From positions 19,759-83,758 of the forward strand of contig CALEPV010000066.1 in the NCBI GenBank assembly GCA_937910905.1: 64,000 nt of DNA, in the 5' to 3' direction. The stretch comes from an uncultured Prevotellaceae bacterium (GTDB lineage Bacteria > Bacteroidota > Bacteroidia > Bacteroidales > Bacteroidaceae). The number at the start of each line of letters is the position of its first letter. The first letter of the stretch is position 1. The translations under genes and the position numbers were made by a program. The notes beneath the pieces are model-generated. The model was not told the origin of the DNA and searched no databases. It worked only from the letters and a program-made list of their open reading frames with translations. Positions 15,273-60,272 of this stretch are shown one piece after another.

Positions 15273-16670
15273 TTATTTAATACGCTGTTCGACCAGCTCG
15301 GCTATCCTGCCAGCATAGTCGTCCAGGTTGCCCGCACCCAGCGTCATCAGCACATCGAAGTCCAGTGTGGGTACCACGCTGAGCACATCGTCTTTGCGGA
15401 TCACTCGCGATGGCACGCCGGGGCGCAGGTTGCTCCGTATCAGCTCGCTGTCCACTCCCTCGATGGGCTGCTCACGGGCGGGATATATCTCTGTCAGCAC
15501 GACCTCGTCGAGCAGCGACAGGGCATCGGCAAACTCGCGGTAGAAGTCGCGTGTGCGGGTGTAGAGGTGCGGCTGGAAGATACCCACTATGCGCTTGCCT
15601 GGATACACCTGGCGCATGCTGGTGATGCTCTGGCGCAGCTCCTCGGGGTGGTGGGCATAGTCGCTCAGATAGGCCACTTGCGGGGTGCGTACGTGGAAAT
15701 CGAAGCGCCGGTCCACACCTCCAAAGCTGGCCATCGCGGTGCGTATCTCGTCGGCCGTAAGGCCTGCTATCTGTGCCAGTGCCATGGCTGCAATGCCGTT
15801 ATCTATGTTGATGCCCACCGGCACACCCAGCTCTACGTCGCTGATGTTTTCTATCGGTGACACCAGGTCGAACACTATGCGGCCATCGCCCATGCGCAGA
15901 TTGCTGGCATGGAAGTCGCCTGCGTCGCGGCTGTAGGTGTAGGTGGTCACACTGTCGGCAGTGTCGGGCCGCAGCTTGAGGCCTGTGTGCACCACCAGAT
16001 AACCGCTCTCCTGGATGAGCGAAGTGTAGTGGCGGAAGCTCTCCAGATAGGCCTCCTCGGTGCCGTAGATGTCCAGATGGTCAGGGTCGGTGGCGGTGAT
16101 GACAGTGGCATAGGGCGTCAGGTGGTGGAACGAGCGGTCGAACTCGTCGGCCTCAATCACCACGTAGTCGCTGGTGGTGGAGAGCAGGTAGTTCGTACCA
16201 TAGTTCTTGGTGATGCCGCCCAGGAAGGCATTGCACCCCACGTGGCTCTGATGTAGCAGGTGGGCTGCCATGCACGATGTGGTGGTCTTGCCGTGTGTGC
16301 CGGCCACGCAGAGGCCGCGGTGTGCGCGTGTCAGAGTGCCCAGCACCTCGGCGCGCTTCATGATGCGGAAGCCGTGCTCGCGGAAGTAGCAGAGCTCGGT
16401 GTGGTCGGCGGGTACGGCGGGCGTGAACACCACCAGTGTCGAGCCGGCATCCTGACAGCTGGTGGGGATGAGCGCCACGTCGTCGGTGTAGTGTATGCTG
16501 GCCCCCTCGGTCTCCAGCTCGCGGGTGAGTGGAGTGGGGGTGCGGTCGTATCCGGCCACAGCCAGCCCCTGCTGCATGTAGTAGCGTGCCAAGGCACTCA
16601 TGCCTATGCCACCGATGCCGATGAAGTATACTGATGTTGGTGTATTCATGACTGGTATTTTATGGTTCAT
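15273..16670 (-). CDS. murC: UDP-N-acetylmuramate--L-alanine ligase
   Basis: FIGIGGIGMSALA and GTHGKTTT motifs. The track start 16679 is a GTG inside the repeat element, so the ATG at 16670 is preferred. Confidence 0.95.
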   Translation of the reverse strand: MNHKIPVMNTPTSVYFIGIGGIGMSALARYYMQQGLAVAGYDRTPTPLTRELETEGASIHYTDDVALIPTSCQDAGSTLVVFTPAVPADHTELCYFREHGFRIMKRAEVLGTLTRAHRGLCVAGTHGKTTTSCMAAHLLHQSHVGCNAFLGGITKNYGTNYLLSTTSDYVVIEADEFDRSFHHLTPYATVITATDPDHLDIYGTEEAYLESFRHYTSLIQESGYLVVHTGLKLRPDTADSVTTYTYSRDAGDFHASNLRMGDGRIVFDLVSPIENISDVELGVPVGINIDNGIAAMALAQIAGLTADEIRTAMASFGGVDRRFDFHVRTPQVAYLSDYAHHPEELRQSITSMRQVYPGKRIVGIFQPHLYTRTRDFYREFADALSLLDEVVLTEIYPAREQPIEGVDSELIRSNLRPGVPSRVIRKDDVLSVVPTLDFDVLMTLGAGNLDDYAGRIAELVEQRIK

Positions 16671-16673
16671 TTT

Positions 16674-16755
16674 TTGCACCGTGCTGCAAGTGTCGCTGCA
16701 CCGCGGTGGAGAGGTTGTTGCACCGTGGTGCAGCTATAGTTGCACCGCGGTCGAA
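16674..16755 (-). repeat. Phased palindrome array, locus A (4 units, 22-bp register)
   Basis: Units at 16674, 16696, 16718 and 16740: TTGCACCGTGCTGCAA, CTGCACCGCGGTGGAG, TTGCACCGTGGTGCAG, TTGCACCGCGGTCGAA, with 6-bp spacers. Unit and spacer order matches the other loci when read on the minus strand. Confidence 0.95.
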
Positions 16756-16758
16756 CAA

Positions 16759-28823: not shown

Positions 28824-28874
28824 TTTGTAGCTGTGATGTGGGGTCTTGTGTTGTAGCCTGTTGTGGGGTGGAAG

Positions 28875-28962
28875 TTGCACCGCGGTGCAGCTCTATTTGG
28901 ACCGCGGTGCAGCTGTCGTTGCACCGTGCTGCAGCGTGTGTTGCACCGCGGTGCAACTTTCG
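28875..28962 (+). repeat. Phased palindrome array, locus B (4 units plus CTTT tail)
   Basis: Units at 28875, 28897, 28919 and 28941: TTGCACCGCGGTGCAG, TTGGACCGCGGTGCAG, TTGCACCGTGCTGCAG, TTGCACCGCGGTGCAA, then CTTTCG. Confidence 0.95.
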
Positions 28963-36468: not shown

Positions 36469-36517
36469 CCGCACTGGCATATCGCGGTGTCGGAACCTTG
36501 GCATTGCGATGTAGCTT

Positions 36518-36606
36518 AAAAAACATGCGCGTGTTAAATAAATGACACGCGCATGTTTTTTATTTAACACGCGCGTGTCATTTATTTAACACGCGCATGT
36601 TTTTTG
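36518..36606. terminator. A-tract/hairpin/T-tract bidirectional terminator embedded in a 4-unit, 22-bp-phased palindrome array
   Basis: 12-nt cores at 36523 (ACATGCGCGTGT), 36545 (ACACGCGCATGT), 36567 (ACACGCGCGTGT) and 36589 (ACACGCGCATGT). Cores 1 and 2 are exact reverse complements, flanked by AAAAA and TTTTTT. Core 4 is followed by TTTTT. Confidence 0.75.
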
Positions 36607-36729
36607 TGCGTTGTCGCGGTGCGATGGCTGAAACGCCGCATTGTCAGCGGCTTTGGGGCGGGTTGGCTGTAGCTTCGTCTTGGGGTCGTGACAACTTTGC
36701 CTTGGGCTCGCAGATGTTTTGCTTAGGAA

Positions 36730-37572
36730 TCAGCGTTGCAGCGTAAGCCGCAGGGTACCGACGAAGCGTGCGTTCTTGCCCATTTGGTTGTCTGGCACAG
36801 GCAGACCGTCGAGGTTGTTCTGTATGCGCGGGCGCTCGAAGTAGGTGTGGCTGTGCCCGCCCAGCACGAGGTCTATGTTGCGTGTGCCGGCGATGAAGTC
36901 CTCGTCGGTGAGGCCCGGTATGCCCCATCCGAGGTGCGACAGGCAGACCACAAGGTTGCAGTGCTCAGTGTTGCGCAGATAGTCGGCTACGGGCTGTGCG
37001 GCCTCGATGGGGTTGCGGTAGCTGACGCCCTCGCAGGTGGCCTTCGCCACCAGACCTTCCAGCTGGGGCGACACGCCGAGCACACCGATGCGCAGACCGC
37101 TGCGCTCGATGATGACGTAGGGCTTCACCAGCCCTTCGCAGGCGGTGCCGGTGAAGTCGTAGTTGCAGCACACGATGGGGAACTGTGCCAGCCGGAAGAT
37201 GCGTGCCATGTTCTCCACACCGAAGTCGAATTCGTGGTTGCCTATGGTGGCAGCGTCGTAGCGCATGAGGTTCATCAGCCCCACCTCCACGTCGCCGTGG
37301 TACAGCGAGTAGTAGGGTGAGCCCTGCGAGAAGTCGCCGCAGTCGAACAGCAACAGGTCGGGGTCGGCGGTGCGCAGGTCGCGCAGCAGTGCTGCACGGC
37401 GCAGGTAGCCGCCCTTGTTGGCCTGCGTGGTGTCGGGCATGTTGGGGTTGAGCGGCACTATGCACGAGTGTGTGTCGTTGGTGTGTACCACCAGTATGCT
37501 CTTTGTGTCCTGTGCCGAGGCAGTCAGTACGGCAGCTGTGGCGAGCACTATATATAATAATGTATGGCGCAT
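36730..37572 (-). CDS. Secreted metallophosphoesterase (5'-nucleotidase N-terminal half)
   Basis: Signal peptide. HTNDTH, GDFSQGS, GNHEFD and GGHSH motifs. Confidence 0.8.
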   Translation of the reverse strand: MRHTLLYIVLATAAVLTASAQDTKSILVVHTNDTHSCIVPLNPNMPDTTQANKGGYLRRAALLRDLRTADPDLLLFDCGDFSQGSPYYSLYHGDVEVGLMNLMRYDAATIGNHEFDFGVENMARIFRLAQFPIVCCNYDFTGTACEGLVKPYVIIERSGLRIGVLGVSPQLEGLVAKATCEGVSYRNPIEAAQPVADYLRNTEHCNLVVCLSHLGWGIPGLTDEDFIAGTRNIDLVLGGHSHTYFERPRIQNNLDGLPVPDNQMGKNARFVGTLRLTLQR

Positions 37573-37589: not shown

Positions 37590-38387
37590 CTATTCGACTT
37601 CCACTATACGTCCCTCAATCGCGGCTTCGGCCATCTGGCCCGCAGCATCCAGCCGCCGCAGGTGGTTCATCAGCACGTCGCGCACGGGCACTTCGGTCAC
37701 GGTGCGCTGCCTGGAGTCCTTGAGTGCTGTCATCTTGTCGTTGCCGTCGGCCAGATAGTCGAGCGTGGCAATGGTGTATGTGCGCTCGGGGTCGATGGGC
37801 TGGCCGGCTATGGTGGCCGACTGCACGCGGCCGTCCTTGGTGATGACCAGCCGCAGGTTGTGGCTTACGCCCTCGCCGTGCACGGCGGCTATGTTCTGCA
37901 TGAGCCGCAGCATGTCGGATCCTTGCATCTCAAGTATCGTGAAGAAGTTCTCGAAGGGCGAGATGGCTATGATGTCGCCCCTGCGCACTGTGTCCTGCGG
38001 CATTGCACTGCGCAGGCCACCCACGTTGCACAGGCCAAGGTCGGCCTTGTAGCCCAGCTGCTCGGCTTCGGCCACGAGGGCATCGGCTACCCAGTTGCTC
38101 AGCAGGCTCTCCGGCCGGCCGGGTGTCATGAACTGTGCGCTGCGGCCTATGTATGGTCGCTGCAGGCTGTCCACGCCAGCCTGATAGGGGCGCAGGAAGT
38201 CGCAGGCCGCCTGCAGCGGACGGCTGTCGAGTGCTGAGGTCACTTCTATTCGGCACGGGCTGACGGTGCGCAGCGAGTAGTGCTGTTGCGTGCCGGCCTG
38301 CTGTGCCTGGTGCGAGGTGTGGCACGCAGAGAGTGTCAGCAGCGCCAGCGTGAGTAGGATAAGGTGTCGTTTCATCGTGTGTAGCAA
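37590..38387 (-). CDS. 5'-nucleotidase C-terminal domain lipoprotein
   Basis: Lipobox LTLSAC. UshA C-terminal-like sequence. Adjacent to the metallophosphoesterase half, the split arrangement common in Bacteroidota. Confidence 0.75.
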   Translation of the reverse strand: MLHTMKRHLILLTLALLTLSACHTSHQAQQAGTQQHYSLRTVSPCRIEVTSALDSRPLQAACDFLRPYQAGVDSLQRPYIGRSAQFMTPGRPESLLSNWVADALVAEAEQLGYKADLGLCNVGGLRSAMPQDTVRRGDIIAISPFENFFTILEMQGSDMLRLMQNIAAVHGEGVSHNLRLVITKDGRVQSATIAGQPIDPERTYTIATLDYLADGNDKMTALKDSRQRTVTEVPVRDVLMNHLRRLDAAGQMAEAAIEGRIVEVE

Positions 38388-39020: not shown

Positions 39021-39108
39021 GTGCACCGCGGTCCAACTATTGTTGCACCGCGGTGCAGCGTTTTCTGCAGCGTGCTCCAACGATGGTTGCAGCACGCTGC
39101 AACTTTTC
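39021..39108 (+). repeat. Phased palindrome array, locus C (4 units plus CTTT tail)
   Basis: Units at 39021, 39043, 39065 and 39087: GTGCACCGCGGTCCAA, TTGCACCGCGGTGCAG, CTGCAGCGTGCTCCAA, TTGCAGCACGCTGCAA, then CTTTTC. Starts 17 nt after the rplS stop. Confidence 0.95.
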
Positions 39109-42244: not shown

Positions 42245-42284
42245 TTATATATAGGTTAGTAACCGCTGAAAAATAACCTGGCTC

Positions 42285-43145
42285 TTATCGCAGCTGCTCG
42301 AAGAGCGAATGACCATTGTGCTTGACCCGTAGCAGCAGGGTGAAGATAGCGAATGGTATCATGAGGAGGATGAGGAACAGAATGACCCCGAAGAAGCCTT
42401 CGACGAGCAATCCTATGCCGGACAGCAGAACAAGGGTGGCTGCCAGAGCATAGTAGGCCGTCTTGCTGCCACGGGATATGTAGCGCAGACAGATGAAGCC
42501 GCAGATGCTGAAAGCCAGTAAGAACAGGCATAATAACCGGTTAACTTCACCAGCCAGTAGAAACACTATGGATGACGCACCCAGCAGCTCCATGCTGGCG
42601 TAGCCAATCTTGATGGCTATGGTGGAGAGCCAGTGGGGCTTGTAGACGATGCGTGCCGGAGCAGGGCCGGCTGTGGTCGTGGTGCCGGTGGCGGCTGTGT
42701 CGCTCTGTGCCGGTCGTGACTCTGCACGGCGCTGACGTCCCAGCTTGGTCAGTATGTCATCGATGAGCACAGTGTCGATGGGGTGGTCCTCTATGCGCCT
42801 CCAGTTGATGGCGCTGAAGGTGAACTCCAGCTCGTCGGGCATCGTACTGCCATCTATTATATAAGGTATGATGTCCTGCTTGGCCATCTTGTTGAAGGCA
42901 TATACAATCTCACTCTGAGTGAACTTGGACGTGTAGGAGTTGCGCGAGGCGAGGAATAGAAAGATTGTTGAATGCTTAATGGCGTTGGCCAGCACTGCGG
43001 GAAACTCCATACCGCCACCGATGCCTTGACGGTCTATGAAGAAGGTTATGCCGGCACGTTCCAGTGCGGCAACCACTTGGTTGGCTATGGCTGTGTCCTT
43101 GCGCGAATAGCTGATGAACACATCGTAGGTGGCTTTGTCTGTCAT
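42285..43145 (-). CDS. TIR-domain protein fused to a C-terminal four-helix membrane domain
   Basis: N-terminal YDVFISYSRKD...FFIDRQ...FLFLASRNSYTSKFTQSEIVYAF (TIR, conserved Glu present). A linker, then about 4 hydrophobic helices (IVFLLAGEV..LLCLFLLAFSICGFICL..YYALAATLVLLSGIGLL..GVILFLILLMIPFAIFTLLL). Start trimmed to ATG 43145. Confidence 0.8.
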   Translation of the reverse strand: MTDKATYDVFISYSRKDTAIANQVVAALERAGITFFIDRQGIGGGMEFPAVLANAIKHSTIFLFLASRNSYTSKFTQSEIVYAFNKMAKQDIIPYIIDGSTMPDELEFTFSAINWRRIEDHPIDTVLIDDILTKLGRQRRAESRPAQSDTAATGTTTTAGPAPARIVYKPHWLSTIAIKIGYASMELLGASSIVFLLAGEVNRLLCLFLLAFSICGFICLRYISRGSKTAYYALAATLVLLSGIGLLVEGFFGVILFLILLMIPFAIFTLLLRVKHNGHSLFEQLR

Positions 43146-43234
43146 GATGAATGGTGATATGCCCACCCCCACGCCCCCATTGAGCTGGGGCGCGAGGGTG
43201 GAAGATTAGTTTCCGACGGGCTGTGCCGGGCGCA

Positions 43235-44209
43235 CTACTTCAGCTCGATAACGGGTATGTTATCCTTATCGTTGTAGTAGAGATTCTCGCCTGCCATACC
43301 CCAGATGAAGGTGTAGTAGTAAGTTCCGGCTGCGGCATGGATGCTCCACTCTGGCGACATGATGGCCTGCTCGTTGTGCAGCCACACCACGCGGCTCTCC
43401 TGCGGCTCACCCATGATGTGGGCGATGGTCTGGTCGGCAGGCAGGTTGAAGTAGTAGTAGGCCTCGATACGGCGACCGTGTGTGTGAGGTGGCATGGTGT
43501 TCCAAGCAGCGCCGGGGTTGAGCTGTGTCAGACCGAGCTGCAGCTGGCATGGACCCTCCTCCAGCACGTCGTTCACGATGAGCTTATACACTGTACGGTT
43601 GTTGCACTCCTCAAGCGAACCGACCGGCCCCCATACGGCAGCCTTCAGCGAACCCTTGCGACCGTCGAGTGTGATCCACTGCGTCTTGTAGTGCTGGTGG
43701 GCTGTAGCGGAGTTCAGATAGAACTTGGCGGGCTTCTGTGCATCCTTGGAGCGGAACTCCACCACCTTGTTCACATCGTTGTCCTTGCCGATATGACCGC
43801 GACCGATGTACAGTGCTTCCTTGGGAGAGAGGGCATATTCCTTGCCATCTACTATCACCACACCGTCGCCCTCGCCGCAGTTCACCACGCCGAGCTCGCG
43901 GTTGTAGAGGAAGTACTTCTCCTTGATGGTGGGGTCAACGTCGAGGCCCAGCTCGGGGAAGTTCTCCAAGCGCAGGGTCTTGGTCACAGGCATGGCACCA
44001 CCGAAGATGAAGCGGTCGTACTGTGAGTAGGTCAGGTTGATTTCATCGGCCACCATCACCTTCTCCATCACGAAGCGGTCGCGCAAGGTCTGCGTGTCAT
44101 AGTGCTTGGCATCCTCTGGGTGACAAGCCGTGCGGAATGTCACATTCTGCTGTGCTGAGGCTGCCATTGTGGCATAGCCCAGCACAAGAAGCATAATCGT
44201 TTTTTTCAT
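43235..44209 (-). CDS. kduI: 5-dehydro-4-deoxy-D-glucuronate isomerase homologue with N-terminal signal peptide
   Basis: Collinear with the KduI family ([26 protein letters not shown]...[19 protein letters not shown]...[10 protein letters not shown]), preceded by [21 protein letters not shown]. Confidence 0.88.
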
Positions 44210-50728: not shown

Positions 50729-50838
50729 ACACACCGCGGTGCACCAAAAGTTGCACCGCGGTGTAAGTCTAGTTGCACCGTGCTCCAGCTATCGCTGCAC
50801 CGCGGTCCAACTCATGTTGCACCGTGCTGCAACTTTAA
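50729..50838 (+). repeat. Phased palindrome array, locus D (5 units plus CTTT tail)
   Basis: Units at 50729, 50751, 50773, 50795 and 50817: ACACACCGCGGTGCAC, TTGCACCGCGGTGTAA, TTGCACCGTGCTCCAG, CTGCACCGCGGTCCAA, TTGCACCGTGCTGCAA, then CTTTAA. Starts at the nucleotide after the rsmA stop. Confidence 0.95.
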
Positions 50839-60164: not shown

Positions 60165-60184
60165 GCATTCTGAAGGATAAAAAG

Positions 60185-60272
60185 TTGCACCGCGGTCCAG
60201 CAATAGTTGGACCGCGGTGCAACTGTTGTTGCAGCACGCTGCAAGTGTCGCTGCAGCACGCTGCAACTTTAT
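60185..60272 (+). repeat. Phased palindrome array, locus E (4 units plus CTTT tail)
   Basis: Units at 60185, 60207, 60229 and 60251: TTGCACCGCGGTCCAG, TTGGACCGCGGTGCAA, TTGCAGCACGCTGCAA, CTGCAGCACGCTGCAA, then CTTTAT. Lies between convergent meaB and ispH. Confidence 0.95.

Follow-up and report, generated by a model that had tools for sequence, protein, structure and literature searches.

A TIR domain joined to four predicted membrane helices in an uncultured Prevotellaceae bacterium, and its relatives with conserved heads and variable tails

Introduction

TIR domains form an enzymatic core common to bacterial, plant and animal immune systems. The effectors of CBASS and Pycsar (TIR-STING, TM-STING, PycTIR and PycTM) include oligomerising TIRs that cleave NAD+ and small modules of membrane helices; they carry a nucleotide-sensing domain (STING, SAVED or cNMP-binding) and adjoin a cyclase, and their TIR and transmembrane (TM) modules are alternatives that are not fused to each other. 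The Rst_2TM_1TM_TIR system of DefenseFinder, a name that also appears in 10.1101/2024.10.26.620412, consists of three genes, with separate 2-TM and 1-TM genes beside the TIR gene. To our knowledge, TIR and TM combinations are known only as separate genes, as in type II Thoeris and Rst_2TM_1TM_TIR. Described here is a gene of an uncultured Prevotellaceae bacterium that encodes both in a single protein, an N-terminal TIR domain followed by four predicted membrane helices (TIR-4TM). It lies in a 64,000 nt stretch of contig CALEPV010000066.1, referred to below as the window. The protein belongs to a family in which one TIR head is highly conserved and the remainder of the protein is exchanged, and it may be a membrane-tethered enzyme acting on NAD+.

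Thoeris resembles the window protein in having a TIR domain with a catalytic glutamate, and in combining TIR chemistry with a membrane component (in type II, a membrane-spanning Macro effector). However, the TIR protein and membrane effector of Thoeris are encoded by separate, adjacent genes and act through a diffusible signal, whereas the window protein is one polypeptide without a ligand-binding domain, its neighbours are KduI and a GH95 glycosidase, and there is no ThsA nearby. Unlike the CBASS and Pycsar effectors, its TIR is the only domain detected, and no cyclase was found in the Pfam-scanned parts of the window (about 1-14.5, 32-53 and 53.5-64 kb; the open reading frames (ORFs) at about 14.5-32 kb are without a Pfam scan). 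The layout of Rst_2TM_1TM_TIR, compared by architecture only, also differs, as the TM and TIR parts of the window protein are encoded by a single gene, which has metabolic neighbours. The best PADLOC matches (2e-9 to 1e-7, including generic ThsB-like (1e-7) and SAVED_TIR models) covered the TIR domain only, as did the NCBIfam model of Thoeris type III ThcB4 (40.5 bits against a cutoff of 220). With partners not found and scores far below the cutoffs, the gene falls outside Thoeris, CBASS, Pycsar, retron-TIR and all PADLOC/NCBIfam systems, and the original prediction, a self-contained, single-gene abortive-infection module, gained no direct support.

The nearest biochemically tested relative found is the TIR protein AMN69_RS28245 of Bacteroides thetaiotaomicron 3731 (BPPS Group_01; 39% identity over 109 residues, E 1e-20), an active NADase that produces cyclic ADP-ribose (cADPR) (Weagley et al. 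2022, Table S2, PMC9092222). Like the window protein, it is an N-terminal TIR_2-type protein of the Bacteroidales with the sequence FISYSRKD and an IP-x-x-ID strand, and both carry the catalytic motif S-x-aromatic-x-Q-x-E-I-x-YA, with the glutamate aligned to E79 of the window protein. It differs in its length (818 aa), its large soluble C-terminal region, its lack of the four membrane helices and a Tyr in place of the Phe. The head family forms a subfamily distinct from AMN69_RS28245 and is much more tightly conserved.

Associations with STAND, caspase/CHAT, trypsin and FGS domains are described for the computationally defined, STAND/NLR-type multi-effector conflict systems of Kaur, Iyer, Burroughs and Aravind (PMC8195603). 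Homologues of the window gene likewise adjoin genes for nSTAND1-TPR, CHAT/caspase, trypsin and other TIR proteins, and sister heads are fused to FGS (PF03781). Neighbours of this kind were found for P0004, P0016, P0085, P0080 and P0081 (handles of family members), but the 64 kb of the window hold no STAND NTPase or other component. The paper makes general statements on TIR and FGS domains, and no description of a 4-TM tail with the conserved head was found in it. More widely, no account of the conserved-head family or of a TIR-4TM fusion was found in the literature, which is weak evidence given incomplete coverage. Animal Toll-like and IL-1 receptors offer a topological analogy only, a cytoplasmic TIR domain joined to a membrane segment. 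Unlike in those receptors, the TIR domain of the window protein is N-terminal and enzymatic-looking and there is no ectodomain. No homology is implied beyond the TIR fold.

Results

The TIR domain and its catalytic residues

The N-terminal part of the protein, about 135 residues, is a TIR domain as originally predicted, and the motifs quoted for it are present. Pfam TIR_2 matched residues 9-118 (E 9.2e-20; 71.8 bits against a cutoff of 28) and Pfam TIR was also above its curated cutoff (E 2.2e-08; 34.5 against 21.3 bits). In an AlphaFold2 model built on 75 homologues, the predicted local distance difference test score (pLDDT) was >90 over residues ~7-135. A Foldseek search of the PDB gave 51 matches at E <= 0.001, and 49 of the 50 listed were TIR domains, with the flavodoxin-like TIR fold; the best were RPP1, SARM1, RUN1, SNC1, MAL, TLR15, SPARTA, AbTir and BtpA.

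The candidate catalytic residue is Glu79, the glutamate within FTQSEIVYAF (Table 1). The family profile pairs 'SkFtqsEiv' with 'SRWCLDELV' of RUN1 and 'STWCLEELV' of Roq1, which sets Glu79 opposite E100 of RUN1. An entry for RUN1 E100A, one residue off wild type, had a lower score (16.6 against 19.3 bits) and an alignment that ended before that position. The profile alignment and the lower score of RUN1 E100A therefore place Glu79 at the catalytic-glutamate position, in agreement with the earlier assignment. E79 is invariant across the 75 family members, together with F75, D38, G45, E47, F48 and P49 (the last five in the BB-loop region), and R39, G41, I42 and G44 are at least 90% conserved.

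The position of the Trp in the WxxxE motif of TIR enzymes is held by the invariant Phe75 (FxxxE), and the active B. thetaiotaomicron relative has a Tyr there. In AbTir, the Glu is essential, the Trp of WxxxE and the BB-loop glycines are important, and activity needs self-association; the Trp has also been linked to cyclisation in TIR enzymes (10.1101/2022.05.07.491051). Since FxxxE replaces WxxxE, the reaction product is not predictable from the motif. An NAD+ glycohydrolase or ADP-ribosyl cyclase is most likely, because the catalytic Glu, the aromatic residue at -4 and the glycine-rich BB loop are all kept.

Table 1. Positions of the features of the TIR-4TM gene, its surroundings and the compared loci (window coordinates unless a locus is given).
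Feature	Position	Strand	Remarks
TIR-4TM coding sequence, complete	42285..43145	-	286 aa; stop codon 42285-42287; ORF listing, sequence
TIR domain, residues 7-135	42741..43127	-	predicted cytoplasmic; Pfam, AlphaFold, Foldseek, 35 columns invariant in 75 homologues
BB-loop region DRQGIGGGMEFP, residues 38-49	42999..43034	-	nearly invariant in family alignment
Glu79 codon	42909..42911	-	motif F75-T-Q-S-E79, FxxxE version of WxxxE; catalytic-glutamate position
Linker, residues 136-170	42636..42740	-	Ala/Thr/Arg/Pro-rich, net positive; predicted disordered
Four predicted membrane helices, residues 171-197, 200-224, 228-247, 251-273	42327..42635	-	hydropathy, AlphaFold, charge
C-terminal tail VKHNGHSLFEQLR	42288..42326	-	predicted cytoplasmic; motif NG[HQ]SLxxxL[RK] conserved in alignment of four 4-TM tails
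G/C-rich hairpin	43163..43201	-	between kduI stop and TIR start; RNA fold
Palindrome GCTCTTATCGCAGCTGC / GCAGCTGCTCGAAGAGC	42281-42306		imperfect, 17 nt
GTTGCACCGCGGTGCA arrays	16695-16756, 28874-28957, 39022-39101, 50750-50833, 60184-60223		tandem, ~22-bp period
AT-rich nested palindrome/tandem structure	36484-36639		units AAAAAACATGCGCGTGT / ACACGCGCATGTTTTTT
Split 5'-nucleotidase	37590-38387 and 36730-37572		C-terminal domain and calcineurin-like phosphoesterase
L19	38635-38997; L013:3451-3813		75% aa identity
TIR head	42720-43127; L013:8001-8420		73% aa identity
RyR-domain proteins near family members	L005-L008:7381-7983, L009:11209-12189, L019:4074-4817, L020:4555-4851, L025:13534-14598 and 16074-16394, L039:2706-3011, L047:11197-11670		L009 by sequence reading only

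Linker, membrane helices and topology

AlphaFold modelling gave a confident TIR head and a four-helix tail. The intervening linker, originally described as Pro/Ala/Thr-rich, has that character by composition, with Arg added, and its residues 151-170 have pLDDT <50. About four hydrophobic helices had been proposed to follow, and four are predicted both in the full-length model (pLDDT 65-78) and in a model of the tail only; helix 1 is marginally hydrophobic (Kyte-Doolittle mean 1.6). Lys and Arg residues cluster in the linker (six), in the loop between helices 2 and 3 (R221, R225, K228) and in the C-terminal tail. This distribution fits only a 4-TM topology with the TIR domain and C-terminus in the cytoplasm (positive-inside rule), so that is the topology adopted here. 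So placed, the TIR domain would face the NAD+-containing cytoplasm. The protein has neither a signal peptide nor a secretion domain.

The tail itself has almost no relatives. A search with residues 160-286 against 1.84 billion representative proteins returned only the protein itself and an 87-aa fragment (P0121), which shows that this tail is no effector module of wide occurrence. Foldseek comparison of the tail-only model with the PDB gave nothing at E < 0.7, the matches (p22phox and Orai among them) being generic four-helix membrane bundles. A reading of the tail as a membrane-disrupting effector, a common function of TM modules, gained no support: with almost no sequence relatives and no informative fold matches, it is no recognisable pore-former.

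A conserved head with variable tails

A word-indexed search gave 683 proteins at E <= 0.001. Among the best 120, all with scores >198 bits, the first ~135 residues are 65-83% identical throughout and the rest of the protein differs completely. The head carries the signature YDVFISYSRKD...FIDRQGIGGGMEFP...SKFTQSEIVYAFNK...IIPYIIDGS...FTFSAINWR, and proteins at or above about 65% identity were counted as members; the window head is 70-83% identical to the heads of 3-TM, 1-TM and soluble members. The commonest tail in the best 120 is a 3-TM module with the signature IRPxS...RKxVxxFYL (at least 54 proteins), and a further 17 have other 3-TM forms. In 15, a single TM helix precedes another 100-250 residues, which include FGE-sulfatase/FGS, DUF1566 and Fib_succ_major domains, and no TM helix was called in 25 (soluble Sel1 or FGS proteins, tandem TIRs and some truncated fragments).

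The 4-TM tail is common only to the window protein (P0001), P0003, P0004 and the fragment P0121, taking the best 120 and the tail search together. P0003 and P0004 are 47% identical to the window protein over 98% of the query. When the four tails are aligned, 18 columns are invariant and two motifs stand out, RxxxRGxKxxYY in a predicted cytoplasmic loop of all of them and FTxxL[KR]..NG[HQ]SLxxxL[RK]. Similarity of the heads is independent of the tail, as the window head is 83% identical to those of 3-TM proteins and ~73-74% identical to those of the other 4-TM proteins.

Members are found in Bacteroidales from gut, rumen and digester samples. Matches in JGI metagenomes were mostly from rumen and gut, and a scan of a genome collection with the single protein found one locus, in a metagenome-assembled genome (MAG) of an uncultured sheep-rumen Prevotella. 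The identical protein is recorded on two metagenome contigs, and the one read is from a bioreactor metagenome (ENA ERZ922530). The family makes up hundreds of clusters at 90% identity, none of which bears a functional name; members are annotated as 'TIR domain-containing protein [Bacteroidales bacterium]' or, for the FGS fusions, as 'SUMF1/EgtB/PvdO family', and nothing more.

Six sister proteins (P0090, P0098, P0110, P0116, P0117 and P0085) consist of the TIR head, one or three membrane helices and a C-terminal domain of 190-250 residues. Where Pfam-labelled, these domains are lectin-like (FGE-sulfatase/FGS or Fib_succ_major); that of P0085 is unlabelled. They are predicted to lie outside the cytoplasm, a layout like that of Toll-like receptors in reverse order.

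Constraint on the head

In seven pairwise comparisons of the head, synonymous sites were saturated (the synonymous rate, dS, was not computable) and the nonsynonymous rate (dN) was 0.16-0.22. The organism of locus L013, which has an rplS neighbourhood in common with the window, was used for calibration. Between the two, the head is about as well conserved as the ribosomal protein L19 (Table 1), compared with 52% aa identity for the metallophosphoesterase and 39% for the 5'-nucleotidase C-domain protein. The head is constrained like a ribosomal protein, whereas the tails are no longer recognisably similar. In both loci the family member lies ~4 kb from rplS; the orientations are opposite and the intervening genes differ, and the common position is possibly coincidental.

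Gene contexts of homologues

The contexts of ten members were read from Pfam labels or translated ORFs, and another 13 metagenome loci, each 6 kb or longer, were screened with reference proteins only, a method of limited sensitivity. P0004, the closest full-length homologue with a 4-TM tail, is part of an apparent operon in which the TIR-4TM gene is followed after 50 bp by a gene for a 440-aa TIR_2 protein, after a further 3 bp by one for a 766-aa nSTAND1-TPR protein, and then by an ATPase_2 gene. This arrangement with a second TIR, nSTAND1 and an ATPase points to a partner-dependent function in at least some members. Around P0016 are Trypsin_2, Pkinase, CHAT-TPR and RyR genes, then the family member itself, TIR_2, DUF4062 and another TIR_2. 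The locus in a Prevotella MAG (L009) has several other TIRs, a RyR-type protein and an AAA ATPase by translated ORFs, and further TIRs by tblastn. P0085 lies with TIR-SIR2_2, nSTAND1, RyR and Macro-TIR; P0080 with two TIR-FGS proteins, a 1088-aa FGS protein and two RyR proteins; and P0081 with caspase C14, TIR-Sel1 and two TIR-WD40 proteins. The context of P0050 is ambiguous (TPR, peptidase C10, AAA-ATPase_like/PDDEXK_9), and the window gene, P0022 and P0017 are solitary among housekeeping genes.

Three of the 13 further loci have RyR, other-TIR or ATPase_2 neighbours and ten do not, which brings contexts of the conflict type to about 9 of 23 overall (~40%). Homologues are thus not consistently linked to housekeeping genes, a pattern that would have spoken against a defence role, just as the invariance of Glu79 in the 75 homologues removes a loss of the catalytic residue from consideration. 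Each sampled locus has one copy of the conserved head, and the co-located TIRs are 23-39% identical to it. When the neighbours of the homologues were run through PADLOC, generic TIR matches were all that was obtained, and the islands thus do not correspond to any catalogued defence system.

Independent loci repeatedly have small RyR-domain (PF02026) proteins beside or within a few kb of family members (Table 1). None was found in the window by phmmer.

The locus within the window

The longest minus-strand frame (42285-43172) begins with a GTG, and an in-frame ATG at 43145 gives the 286-aa product. The GTG falls within a hairpin and has no backing from homologues as a start, whereas the N-termini of all homologues have 3-8 residues ahead of the conserved YDVFISYSRKD. 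The start is therefore taken to be the ATG, and the coordinates originally assigned to the gene (42285-43145) are right. It is the last gene of a minus-strand run (LPG-synthase-TM, M20 peptidase, DUF8429, EIIC-GAT, KduI, TIR) and is convergent with the GH95 glycosidase gene. Farther away are housekeeping genes: L19, a split 5'-nucleotidase, EF-P, L34, RuvB, KsgA, ArgG, ArgR, acetate kinase, Pta, RecO, FtsZ, FtsA, exonuclease VII, MeaB, LytB, Cmk and TonB. The window is core genome.

No sensor, cyclase, SIR2, SLOG, Macro, STING or ThsA was found in the Pfam-scanned parts of the window, and a phmmer screen of all window ORFs against nSTAND1, ATPase_2, RyR, CHAT, caspase, DUF4062 and five other TIR types returned the gene itself only; the original statement that no partner lies nearby is upheld by both. 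The window has no tRNA genes.

Two relatives with 88-89% identical KduI proteins keep the EIIC-GAT-KduI pair, and one of them (L024) also has DUF8429 upstream. Their DNA similarity to the window ends at the kduI stop codon (position 43236). Directly past kduI, an MFS transporter, DUF554 and EF-G follow in one relative; the other (L024:10368-12126) has a 56-aa ORF, then an N6_N4 methyltransferase and a SfiI/BglI-type endonuclease. Since these relatives differ directly downstream of kduI, the TIR gene occupies a variable slot. That the slot holds a restriction-modification system in one relative gives modest support to an accessory or defence character, and the gene is not syntenic core here.

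A mobile-element origin was considered and rejected, as phage, plasmid and IMG/VR collections yielded no close relatives. A tblastn search of 50,697 phage records gave no match, plasmids held only distant TIRs (33-40% identity) and IMG/VR only TIRs at 25-32%; one weak match to a PHROGs family was to one of unknown function. Base composition is not diagnostic of recent horizontal transfer either. The TIR gene has a GC content of 54.5% and a third-position value (GC3) of 0.69, against 59.3 +/- 2.7% and 0.765 +/- 0.048 for 24 other window genes, i.e., 1.6-1.8 standard deviations under the mean, but the adjacent, native-looking EIIC gene is lower still. The somewhat lower GC remarked on originally is real, but as a signal it is weak, being inside the native range.

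The hairpin upstream of the TIR gene, also part of the original prediction, is real, with a 15-bp stem and a 9-nt loop, 34 nt past the kduI stop and 18 nt ahead of the TIR start. A folding energy of -43 kcal/mol (z = -2.8) was computed for the 101-nt region around it. The hairpin lacks a U-tract, and a terminator scan made no call there; nor did the hairpin have a second copy in the window or a match in Rfam, and it was therefore rejected as a regulatory RNA or repeat element. It looks like ordinary 3' structure of kduI, most likely a terminator or stabiliser of that transcript rather than an element of the TIR gene. At the other end of the TIR gene, an imperfect palindrome (GCTCTTATCGCAGCTGC / GCAGCTGCTCGAAGAGC) lies across the stop codon, in the 40-bp gap between the two convergent genes, TIR and GH95, and may serve both as a terminator element.

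Several other features were observed in the window (Table 1). The palindrome GTTGCACCGCGGTGCA forms tandem arrays at five sites between large ORFs, one of them between rplS and the GH95 gene. With up to 2 mismatches there are 25 matches to GTTGCACCGCGGTGCA in the window, against 0.19 expected by chance, and the arrays look like a dispersed element of this genome resembling repetitive extragenic palindromes (REP) or bacterial interspersed mosaic elements (BIME). The convergent efp and metallophosphoesterase genes are separated by the AT-rich structure with units AAAAAACATGCGCGTGT / ACACGCGCATGTTTTTT, the 74-nt arms of which are 78% complementary. The 5'-nucleotidase is split into adjacent genes, and L013 shows the same split next to rplS.

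Discussion

The TIR-4TM protein may be a cytoplasm-facing, membrane-tethered TIR NAD+ hydrolase or cyclase, with a putative activity gated by clustering; this is the explanation preferred here, although it falls somewhat short of probable. The TIR head would sit ~35 disordered residues off a compact four-helix bundle in the inner membrane. As with other TIR enzymes, activity would be expected only when TIR domains pack together, and the membrane bundle may govern this packing by two-dimensional confinement and clustering. Speculatively, clustering could be triggered by a membrane-level cue sensed by the 4-TM bundle, or by recruitment through TIR/STAND partners such as those of the P0004 operon, and the output could be NAD+ depletion or a signal derived from ADP-ribose (ADPR). 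Of the possible roles, the likeliest is within a TIR/STAND-type conflict or defence system like those around many homologues, and one in phage defence is plausible. The window copy is an orphan, apart from any partner, in the variable slot downstream of kduI.

Several observations weigh against a gated NAD+ enzyme with a role in conflict. The catalytic motif is FxxxE rather than WxxxE. The head family was not found in the accessible supplementary tables of a screen of 152 TIRs, most of which were inactive in vitro (PMC9092222). No PADLOC or NCBIfam system model fits the protein beyond generic TIR similarity, and the neighbours of homologues gave nothing more specific in PADLOC. The 64-kb window revealed no partner or defence gene, ~60% of the sampled homologue loci are without any screened partner type, and phage, plasmid and IMG/VR collections hold no close relatives. 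Constraint on the head at the level of a ribosomal protein is also atypical for a gene in an arms race.

This last point is the main reason for retaining, as a distinctly less probable explanation, a conserved physiological signalling enzyme: a clade-wide module of Prevotellaceae-like Bacteroidales that makes an NAD-derived nucleotide at the membrane for physiology or for community or host interaction, its differing tails placing the head at, or coupling it to, different envelope inputs. A head conserved like L19 and far above the flanking enzymes, with saturated dS and low dN, would be expected of such an enzyme. The single head copy per sampled locus, the low identity of other TIRs there (23-39%), the many members (the window gene included) alone among housekeeping genes, the lack of close relatives on phages, plasmids and viral contigs, and the release of cADPR variants in vivo by gut Bacteroides TIRs (PMC9092222) agree with it as well. 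However, the relatives whose KduI is 88-89% identical are without the gene at this place, TIR, STAND, caspase or RyR genes abound at about 40% of homologue loci, and the swapped, very fast-evolving tails suggest diversifying sensor or localisation modules. The intact catalytic residues, and a closest tested relative that makes cADPR, would also suit a Thoeris-like generator acting in trans, one that on infection makes a cADPR-type or other ADPR-derived messenger for an effector encoded elsewhere in the genome. The generic ThsB-like and ThcB4 matches on the TIR domain, and the SIR2_2-TIR and Macro-TIR proteins near other family members, lean in that direction. This explanation is nevertheless unlikely, as the ThcB4 score is far from its cutoff, known Thoeris genes adjoin each other, no ThsA, SLOG, Macro or SIR2 effector was found in the window, and a Phe stands where the cyclisation-linked Trp would be expected.

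Conservation over the whole surface of the head, including the BB loop, would equally suit a protein-protein interface, and a non-catalytic adaptor can be envisaged in which the head docks homotypically to TIR/STAND proteins in the manner of MyD88 and MAL and the Glu is structural. Foldseek matches to scaffold TIRs (the MAL filament, TLR15 and Hydra TRR-2) are about equal to those with enzyme TIRs, and co-location with other TIR proteins is frequent. Those TIRs, however, are from distant subfamilies rather than carrying the same head, the window copy has no TIR partner nearby, and a Glu with an aromatic residue at -4, invariant in 75/75 homologues, is the signature of enzymatic TIRs, so that an adaptor must be rated quite improbable. 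Least credible of all is a TcpB/BtpA/TcpC-type TIR mimic, directed at the host, that disturbs animal Toll-like receptor signalling; the family does come from gut and rumen Bacteroidales, and BtpA is among the fold matches, but a polytopic protein of the inner membrane that lacks a signal peptide and any secretion domain, found in a bioreactor metagenome and with relatives whose domain partners are those of bacterial conflict systems, makes a very poor candidate.

A broader proposal, bold and rather unlikely, is that the family constitutes an undescribed set of receptor-like proteins of Bacteroidales, in which one ultra-conserved enzymatic head is combined with interchangeable tails that turn envelope cues into NAD-derived signals, and the 4-TM form is a partner-free sensor of membrane state. 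If true, the 4-TM and 3-TM tails, the 1-TM tails with extracytoplasmic lectin-like FGS/DUF1566 domains, and the Sel1 tails would make the family a bacterial counterpart of Toll-like receptors, and the cues sensed by the 4-TM form might include phage-induced lesions or depolarisation.

If the TIR-4TM protein were merely a docking module, or inactive, the window copy would be an ordinary orphan accessory gene. If the preferred explanation of a membrane-tethered NAD+ enzyme is correct and this form is active, it would represent a simple mode of TIR control, by clustering at the membrane with no soluble sensor domain, and would provide a handle on a large unannotated TIR family of rumen, gut and digester Bacteroidales. 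The contrast between conserved head and swapped tails is a testable evolutionary pattern that could separate the roles of immune effector and physiological signalling enzyme for bacterial TIRs. It is this family-level pattern, an ultra-conserved head with swappable membrane and sensor tails that include topologies like those of Toll-like receptors, that is the part worth following.

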